Shown: one piece after another, positions 8,648 through 9,241 of the stretch
Layout of the letters: the number at the start of each line of letters is the position of its first letter
Position numbering within the stretch: the stretch's first letter is position 1
From: Escherichia phage WPEC6
Reading direction: 5' to 3' (one strand)
Length of the DNA stretch: 64,000 nucleotides
Sequence record: PV763039.1
Program-made: the position numbers and the translations under genes
The notes under the pieces: generated by a model
Told to the model about the DNA's origin: nothing
Database searches by the model: none
What the model saw: only the letters and a program-made list of their open reading frames with translations

Positions 8648-9241
8648 TTACCAAGGAATATCATCTTCTTCCGATCTGGTATCTACTTGAGGTGGACGCG
8701 GAACCTTCACTTCTTTAACAAAACGTAGATATGGGAAACGTGTGGCAATTTTAATAACATGTTTGGCATCTTCTCTAACGTCTTTGTGCAAGAAGCAGAT
8801 CCCTGTTTCCAAGGTTGTTTCAAAATCTTTAGAATAATAACAATCCTTCCCATCAAATGCAGCCTGGCAGATGGACAGATCGAACTCATTTAGAAAGGTT
8901 GTCATTACGCTTGGTTCCATAATCATAAGGTTGCAAAGCTGACCATCACGTTCAAACTCAAAAACGTGTTTAAGACCAGTAACACCTTCATAATTGTCAG
9001 AAGCCTCTTTGTTTCCTAGTTTACGAATATTGGTTCCCATTAAAGCAGATGCAATTAATCCTTGTATTTGTTCTTCAGTCCGATGTGCAGGAAGGGATGT
9101 ATAGAAATCCAGATCACGTCCAGCAATATCAAGAATACGCCAATCACGAACAGCACCGCCAGCCAAGACAGAATTAGGATCAGCGATCTTTAATACGGTA
9201 AGAATTTCTTTGGCAATATTGATTTGTTTTGATTTAGTCAT
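8648..9241 (-). CDS. Pol-beta-superfamily nucleotidyltransferase (CCA-adding-enzyme head-like) with SSB-like acidic C-terminal tail
   Basis: 197-aa ORF with GGAVRD...DLDF motif (nucleotidyltransferase G[GS]xVRD + DxD) and C-terminal ...SEEDDIPW resembling the SSB tip. Confidence 0.55.
   Translation of the reverse strand: MTKSKQINIAKEILTVLKIADPNSVLAGGAVRDWRILDIAGRDLDFYTSLPAHRTEEQIQGLIASALMGTNIRKLGNKEASDNYEGVTGLKHVFEFERDGQLCNLMIMEPSVMTTFLNEFDLSICQAAFDGKDCYYSKDFETTLETGICFLHKDVREDAKHVIKIATRFPYLRFVKEVKVPRPPQVDTRSEEDDIPW

Follow-up and report, generated by a model that had tools for sequence, protein, structure and literature searches.

Organization of the locus

[quoted passage not shown] The gene lies at 8648..9241 on the minus strand, as do all features of the window given below unless stated otherwise, and its stop codon is at 8648..8650. 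As the initial annotation of the window had it, the product is a 197-amino-acid (aa) protein with a GGAVRD...DLD core (residues 28 to 33 and 43 to 45) and an EEDDIPW ending; it begins MTKSKQ and closes ...RSEEDDIPW. Public records already label the gene "nucleotidyltransferase," and PHROGs 10174 and 1614 likewise say no more than that.

The gene is part of a replication operon encoded on a single strand in the order T7-type primase-helicase, 143-aa protein, Dam-like methyltransferase, family A DNA polymerase, three small open reading frames (ORFs), NTase, 130-aa protein, and SSB-like gene. The primase-helicase (14530..16308) was recognized by its Pfam domains Toprim_2 and DnaB_C and the T7-type polymerase (9870..13202) by DNA_pol_A, the latter being called "T7-like" in the phi92 annotation. 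The SSB-like gene (7306..8193) encodes a 295-aa protein with the C-terminal tip DFDDDIPF (7309..7332), also as first noted, and the one gene between it and the NTase gene is that of the 130-aa protein (8210..8602). The order of polymerase, NTase, intervening gene, and SSB-like gene is kept in phiWec186, Citrobacter phage Tr1, Klebsiella phage 05F01, and phi92, with the 130-aa gene always as the intervening one.

Relationship to Gad2 and to CCA-adding enzymes

Motif A of the NTase (AGGAVRDW...RDLDFY, residues 27 to 47; 9101..9163) was delimited by conservation and alignments and contains the catalytic residues D43 and D45. It aligns both with the GGAVRD...DxD of CCA-adding enzymes and PcnB and with the AGGA...DVDIY of the phage protein Gad2. 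In an alignment of 129 family members, G28, G29, D43, and D45 are invariant (129/129), and conservation is 90% or higher at Q6, A10, A27, A30, R32, D33, W34, Y84, and K164. Position 95 (codon at 8957..8959) is E or D in 91 of the 129 sequences and N or Q in 25; it is E in the WPEC6 protein and invariant in the alignment of close relatives. From its place on the neighboring strand of the Pol-beta fold, E95 is probably the third catalytic carboxylate. The catalytic Asp residues that the initial annotation had left to be checked are therefore in place in all 129 members aligned, and the protein is a minimal Pol-beta-type NTase with intact catalytic carboxylates, one that probably is catalytically competent.

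An AlphaFold model based on the 129-sequence alignment had a mean predicted local distance difference test score (pLDDT) of 93.1 and a predicted template modeling score (pTM) of 0.85, with a structured core that stops at about residue 176; a model from a 13-sequence alignment was poor (pLDDT, 62.6) and was discarded. It shows the head fold of class II CCA-adding enzymes and poly(A) polymerases together with part of the neck, and it lacks the body and tail domains by which tRNA is held. The minimal NTase core proposed at the outset is thus of Pol-beta type, and its classification, which had been left between a CCA-adding head, a minimal nucleotidyltransferase (MNT), and a cGAS/DncV-like nucleotidyltransferase (CD-NTase), falls to the class II head fold. 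A PDB search with the single sequence returned no significant match, and single-sequence Pfam and NCBIfam searches gave noise or subthreshold matches to motif A, among them PolyA_pol (PF01743; 13.8 bits, under the cutoff of 23) and TIGR02692 (12.6, under the cutoff of 438.8). An exhaustive profile search for the family retrieved 1,034 representatives at an E value of ≤1e-3 and 329 at ≤1e-10, nearly all of them stand-alone proteins of 175 to 240 aa.

The closest characterized relative, which the initial annotation had missed, is Gad2 (Gabija anti-defense protein 2) as judged by profile comparison. The validated Gad2 sequence (SPbetaL7 ORF_159, 400 aa) was taken from the supplement of the discovery preprint. 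When compared by hhalign with the NTase family profile, it aligned over 121 columns (Gad2 residues 16 to 139) at 91.5% probability and an E value of 8.6e-7, with matches at AGGA...DxDxY and FDxS/T[IV]C...AFD. The same profile reached only 27.8% over 40 columns with E. coli Cca and 52.9% over 51 columns with PcnB, both far below Gad2. Of the top 120 relatives, roughly half, P0009 (61% identical) among them, carry a precomputed PF26128 (Gad2) annotation; the cluster of the WPEC6 NTase itself has no recorded PF26128 hit. Because our Pfam and NCBIfam scans matched PF26128/Gad2 to no family member, the link was tested against the published Gad2 sequence. We classify the WPEC6 NTase, with high confidence, as a short protein homologous to the catalytic domain of Gad2 and, given that the C-terminal ~230 residues of Gad2 are missing, do not class it as a Gad2 orthologue.

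It is also conceivable that the protein is a tRNA nucleotidyltransferase or poly(A) polymerase, as in the GenBank records, whose task is to repair or tail the 3' ends of RNA, for example of phage or host tRNAs cut by defense nucleases, and in which the C-terminal tip is incidental. The best structural matches of the model are indeed CCA-, CC-, and A-adding enzymes and poly(A) polymerase I (PAP I), the phage has 10 tRNA genes, and defenses that sense SSB and cleave tRNAs, such as DARNA, have been described. One distant lineage keeps this explanation alive: contig SRR13169034_173247 (locus L096, 8943..12625) carries a 329-aa, distant Gad2-like NTase ending in ...SDDDF, flanked on one side by a ligase-like gene and on the other by that of the RNA ligase RtcB, an arrangement that hints at a role in nucleic acid end repair in that lineage. 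The WPEC6 protein, however, ends after the head and partial neck and lacks the tRNA-holding domains, and its sequence homology to Cca and PcnB is confined to motif A. For motifs B to E, which serve ribose and base recognition (RRD, EDxxR), profile alignments to the two E. coli enzymes end after motif A, and the structural alignment reaches the neck; by eye only, FDLSICQA resembles RDFTINA and EDAKH resembles EDxxR, and neither is conserved across the family. All 10 tRNA genes encode CCA and lie ~40 kb from the NTase gene, and the conserved neighbors of the family are primase-helicase and PolA rather than tRNA or RNA repair genes. We therefore regard a primary role in RNA 3'-end repair or tailing as unlikely. 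De novo addition of CCA to the phage tRNAs was considered separately and rejected, since each of these genes already encodes it.

The C-terminal tip of the nucleotidyltransferase

The NTase ends in ...SEEDDIPW directly before the stop codon, which leaves an acidic run and an Ile-Pro-aromatic sequence at the free end of the protein. The last five residues, DDIPW (residues 193 to 197; 8651..8665), resemble the docking peptide at the tip of SSB, and they follow a variable, proline-rich linker (residues 177 to 192, EVKVPRPPQVDTRSEE; 8666..8713). No secondary structure is modeled past residue 176, the pLDDT over the last 17 residues is 67 to 79, and the linker varies in both length and sequence among homologues. 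Over 11 tip-bearing sequences (the WPEC6 NTase and 10 homologues that are 58 to 97% identical), the mean frequency of the most common residue is 0.96 for the 5 residues of the tip, 0.79 for the 176 residues of the core, and 0.62 for the linker. The NTase of Citrobacter phage Tr1, with 37% identity and an unrelated linker, still ends in ...KPKDIPW, and the metagenomic relative P0016 ends in ...FPDDIPW, again behind an unrelated linker. Endings of the IPF, IPW, IPY, or acidic-aromatic kind, among them ...DDGIPF, ...SNDIPW, and ...SDDDF, are found in about nine much more distant members (~3.5% of the family). In a rough neighbor-joining tree, the DIPW tips fall on three branches amid other acidic/aromatic endings.

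Such C termini are rare in these genomes. A search of the 385 window ORFs with a length of 40 aa or more found a DDIP[FW] ending on the NTase and the SSB-like protein alone, and the same two proteins are the only ones among 900 ORFs of the complete tuntematon genome. From tuntematon amino acid frequencies, a C-terminal [DE]DIP[FW] is expected by chance at 1.2e-6 per protein, or 3e-4 per genome of 280 genes. Only two other acidic-aromatic C termini came up in the genome scan: that of a 101-aa ORF (40281..40586), which ends in ...KTEEEF, and that of the small subunit of ribonucleotide reductase (tuntematon 119362..120447), whose ending, ...DDEELDF, is of the known R1-binding R2 tail type.

A tail without function, arising either by chance or as the relic of a copy of the SSB-like gene close by, might be suspected from the fact that GATGATATTCC is common to the DNA of both tails and that the genes are ~450 bp apart. 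The chance expectation just given stands against this explanation, as do the better conservation of the tip than of the core at 58 to 97% identity, its survival at 37%, and the recurrence of similar tips in distant family members. In addition, the last residue is Trp in the NTase of all tip-bearing close relatives and always Phe in the SSB-like protein, which argues against simple copying and for a difference in partner or affinity. We consider a functionless tail very improbable. The tip is, by its conservation and recurrence, a genuine, selectively maintained SSB-tip-like peptide rather than a chance ending, and that it serves as a docking motif is reasonably likely. The initial annotation had described the tail as a mimic of the SSB tip; the conserved acidic, Ile-Pro-aromatic end bears this out, and the correspondence stops short at the final residue. 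A literature search on DDIPW and on SSB-tip mimicry by phage enzymes found no report for this or any other non-SSB phage enzyme. The annotation of the gene and the database link of its relatives to Gad2 were already known; the SSB-type tip on an NTase appears from this search to be new.

Family context and tips on other replication proteins

The genomic context of the family was surveyed in 78 viral loci, which represent 46 NTase lineages when clustered at 60% identity, by inspection of neighbors within 5 kb. A T7-type primase/helicase was found near the NTase in 30 of the 46 lineages, a family A DNA polymerase in 33 (26 + 7), and a 5'-3' exonuclease in 9, and structural relatives labeled "nucleotidyltransferase" occur in many phiKMV/T7-like phages. 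T7-type replication modules thus recurrently include a member of this family as an accessory gene, a point that had also escaped the initial annotation.

Among the 1,514 neighboring ORFs, SSB-style tips were otherwise almost confined to SSB-type and other replication proteins. At related loci, gp2.5-like SSBs end in ...DDDIPF or ...DDSLPF, a DnaB-type helicase ends in ...DDRVPF, and a DnaD/RepA-like loader ends in ...DDEEGLPF; a 5'-3' exonuclease ending in ...DDDYDF shares its contig with an NTase ending in ...SDDDF. The primase-helicase of the WPEC6-type phage ends in ...PTDSNY and has no obvious tip. Exact-sequence matching placed P0159, P0118, and P0131, which are distant NTases with a tip, and also P0016 in their genomic contexts, the contig of P0159 being too short to show an SSB.

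Genes for proteins of PHROG 862 (unknown function, 223 to 245 aa) occur close to those of Gad2-like NTases, and the C termini of these proteins read ...DDVPW, ...KDIPW, or ...EDTPW (727..1416 of locus L027, 7134..7805 of L034, and 7807..8544 of L043). Trp-ended SSB-style tips therefore exist on another protein family.

The SSB-like neighbor and other features of the region

The last 12 residues of the SSB-like protein (...PPMDFDDDIPF) are those of E. coli SSB (PDB 1eqq/4mz9), so that its tip is identical to the host C terminus. The body belongs to PHROG 4477 (unknown function), a phage family without a Pfam domain. No Pfam SSB hit was obtained, a PDB profile search and SSB families matched only the last ~25 to 45 residues, and an hhalign comparison with T7 gp2.5 gave 0.5%, that is, no homology. 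The initial designation of this neighbor as SSB is supported by a tip identical to that of E. coli SSB, while the body matches no SSB family and is not demonstrable as an oligonucleotide/oligosaccharide-binding (OB)-fold SSB by sequence. In its family, 61 of 120 clusters end in DDDIPF and ~40 more have another [DE]x[DE][ILVC]PF, for a total of ~100 of 120. The 130-aa protein encoded next to it, assigned to PHROG 16560 (unknown function), had no PDB match.

About 20 of the 120 SSB-like clusters run past ...DDDIPF with a conserved extension of 14 to 17 aa, [AS]P[IVL]GLQY...(H/Y)A... These include one 110-member Phapecoctavirus cluster, and the WPEC6 copy is without the extension. Examples are phi92 gp156 (5026..5973 of locus L085) and the proteins of Tr1 (5064..6035 of L083) and Mt1B1_P17 (9744..10676 of L001), along with P0161, P0173, P0186, P0208, P0214, P0228, P0254, and P0272. 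Both Mt1B1_P17 and phi92 carry an endonuclease gene immediately downstream of the extended gene. The extension would bury the free carboxylate of the tip and could represent a masked tip, a second motif, or the junction of a mobile element.

Upstream of the NTase gene, a 72-aa ORF (9234..9452) overlaps the NTase start by 8 nt, which suggests translational coupling, and a GGAG was read from the sequence 7 nt upstream of the NTase ATG. The operon is closed by a bidirectional terminator-like hairpin (7251..7274, both strands) with a 10-bp stem that contains 5 G-C pairs and is followed by a T run. A promoter-like site (8611..8640; TTGACA, 18-nt spacer, TAGGAT, upstream TG) lies within the 45-bp gap between the NTase gene and the 130-aa gene; in a promoter scan of the region, promoter-like sites were no more numerous than in shuffled sequence.

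The polymerase gene has a clean 245-aa in-frame insertion (residues 584 to 828) relative to the 865-aa tuntematon polymerase, with flanks that are 99.8 to 100% identical to the latter. The insertion begins with Cys, ends in ...TGN followed by Cys, and holds the LAGLIDADG-like FLEGFLIADGYW; on these features it resembles an intein that contains a homing endonuclease, and Pfam gave no intein match for it. Four consecutive glycosyltransferase genes lie between the primase-helicase and the lysis genes (16599..19743; tuntematon 121282..124560), and a dTDP-rhamnose pathway and several DNA methyltransferases are encoded elsewhere in the phage. The glycosyltransferase genes may form a sugar modification module for DNA or the cell surface.

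Proposed role of the tip

We propose that the WPEC6 protein is a Gad2-type NTase that is tethered to the replisome or to an SSB partner and acts at replication forks or on SSB-marked DNA, a reading to which, taken as a whole, we assign a probability of roughly one-half. Expressed from a T7-type replication operon, the enzyme has a class II-like head and short neck without a nucleic acid-binding body or tail domain and carries, instead of a substrate-binding domain, the flexible linker of ~16 residues with the putative SSB-type docking peptide EEDDIPW at its end. Most likely, the terminal aromatic residue and carboxylate of the tip would insert into a site made up of a pocket and a basic ridge, the same kind of site that would bind the DFDDDIPF of the SSB-like neighbor and of host SSB. 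Such a site might be located on the phage polymerase or replisome, the family A DNA polymerase being a candidate docking partner of acidic tips, or on host SSB-interacting proteins. Tethered in this way, the enzyme would carry out nucleotidyl transfer at forks or at SSB-coated single-stranded DNA (ssDNA) and DNA ends. Recruitment to SSB-tip partners, as put forward in the initial annotation, is consistent with all of our findings and is further supported by the presence of such tips on other phage replisome proteins.

By homology with Gad2, the likely benefit would be that replicating phage DNA is shielded from a DNA-targeting defense such as Gabija. According to the discovery preprint, SPbetaL7 needs Gad2 to resist Gabija, a Brevibacillus Gad2 homologue suffices to inhibit Gabija, inhibition was shown solely for these two proteins, and SPbetaL7 Gad2 expressed alone is toxic. 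A phage NTase that adjoins a primase/helicase gene, and that has homologues with a Gad2 family annotation in some other phages, was cytotoxic when overexpressed in Pseudomonas; the toxicity of both proteins indirectly favors an effect on some host component. An anti-defense outcome of the tethered enzyme is put forward tentatively, as possible rather than probable. The full combination is more doubtful still: that the SSB-type tip is an address label which brings a Gad2-type enzyme to a protein with a pocket for the SSB C terminus (SSB-Ct), or to SSB-coated ssDNA or ends, and thereby blinds host defenses. The target would then be a host repair or defense helicase or nuclease, or the phage polymerase; the reaction might be protein nucleotidylation or the capping or tailing of DNA 3' ends; and the defenses affected would be those that sense ends or ssDNA, such as Gabija and possibly SSB-sensing systems.

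Several observations weigh against the proposed tethering and its anti-defense extension. The identity of the neighbor as an SSB rests on its tail, its genomic position, and some GenBank annotations, and is reasonable but unproven. The close relatives in phi92 (...EEFKI) and 05F01 (...DSFEKF) are without the IPW tip in an identical synteny, which makes the tip dispensable for the core function, and ~93% of the 266 retrieved family sequences, or ~96% when the close Phapecoctavirus group is set aside, are tipless. The consistent Trp of the NTase tip, as opposed to the Phe of the SSB-like tips, may make it unfit for canonical SSB-Ct pockets. At locus L095, the NTase tip NDIPW is unlike the tip style of the coresident exonuclease (DDFDDF). 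The WPEC6 protein is encoded outside an anti-defense locus and without the C-terminal ~230 residues of Gad2, so that anti-Gabija activity is not to be assumed, and the mechanism of Gad2 itself is still to be elucidated according to a February 2026 review (PMC12904381).

A different function of the tip would be autoinhibition, in which the acidic end folds back as a nucleic acid mimic onto the basic groove of the NTase itself until a substrate or partner displaces it. The tails of SSB and gp2.5 act in this way on their own DNA-binding surfaces, competing with ssDNA for their own OB folds. The pLDDT values of the tail suggest that it is not fully disordered, and restraint could be useful given the toxicity of overexpressed Gad2 and of the Pseudomonas-tested NTase. 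The exact Ile-Pro-aromatic C terminus is nevertheless the signature of partner docking and not of a generic acidic mimic, tipless relatives have the same core, and that core is net acidic, with 22 K and R against 25 D and E. Autoinhibition as the main function is accordingly held to be improbable, although it and partner docking are not mutually exclusive.

The tip could also be a decoy that competes with host SSB for partners such as exonuclease I (ExoI), RecQ, PriA, or RecG and so blocks repair or defense, with catalysis being secondary. The NTase tip does resemble that of host SSB, and many defense systems sense or use SSB (PMC12904381). The phage, however, already has an SSB-like protein with a host-identical tip, a single-tailed protein would presumably be a poor competitor of the abundant, tetrameric SSB, and the strict conservation of the catalytic residues implies that enzymatic activity matters. 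A decoy is quite unlikely in our estimate, and of the two possibilities raised initially, competition with SSB is less likely than recruitment in the manner of SSB.

In the T7-type replication modules of phages, few "nucleotidyltransferase" genes without an explanation are as common as those of small Gad2 relatives, and a conserved SSB-type tip in a genetically tractable E. coli phage makes the question of their substrate experimentally concrete. The finding also broadens the idea of a C-terminal docking code common to SSB and phage replisome accessory proteins. If the tip is indeed an address label for a counter-defense enzyme, it would be the first example of an SSB tip targeting such an enzyme and the first mechanistic handle on the Gad2 family.

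Comparison with known systems

Like class II NTases, the WPEC6 protein has a motif A of the form GGxVRD...DxD with its catalytic carboxylates; in contrast to them, it is less than half as long and has neither body nor tail domains. A stand-alone protein of similar size is known from the structure 2LA3, the 191-aa "CCA-adding enzyme head domain" protein of Streptococcus pneumoniae (NP_344798.1), which is bacterial and shares 13% identity with the phage enzyme.

The C terminus has in common with that of E. coli SSB (...MDFDDDIPF) an acidic run, an Ile-Pro-aromatic sequence at the extreme end, and a flexible linker before it. It differs in having Trp for Phe and EEDD for DFDDD, and it is carried by an enzyme instead of an ssDNA-binding core.

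Gad2 is likewise phage encoded and has a homologous NTase domain. Its 400 residues include ~230 to 260 extra C-terminal residues, and the WPEC6 protein has no counterpart of Gad2 residues ~170 to 400. Mutations in the Gad2 active site reportedly abolish its activity. Whereas the Gad2 gene belongs to an anti-defense locus of temperate Bacillus phages, the WPEC6 gene is part of a replication operon in a virulent myovirus of E. coli, and the Gad2 sequence examined, which is missing its last residue(s), shows no SSB-type tip.

The arrangement also recalls the T7 replisome, in which several proteins share an acidic, aromatic-ended tail: gp2.5 ends in EDGDF and gp4 in NDTDF. Both tails dock on the T7 DNA polymerase. 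The gp2.5 tail, whose terminal Phe is essential, does so on a basic patch (PMC12339929), and WPEC6-type phages have a T7-type PolA and primase-helicase. Unlike those of T7, the WPEC6 tips are of the host SSB type (Ile-Pro-aromatic) rather than DxDF, and an NTase of this sort is absent from T7. In the simplest interpretation, the NTase has become one of the proteins that use the SSB-type address label of this phage replisome; because that label is identical to the label of the host, host SSB-interacting proteins are equally plausible receptors.

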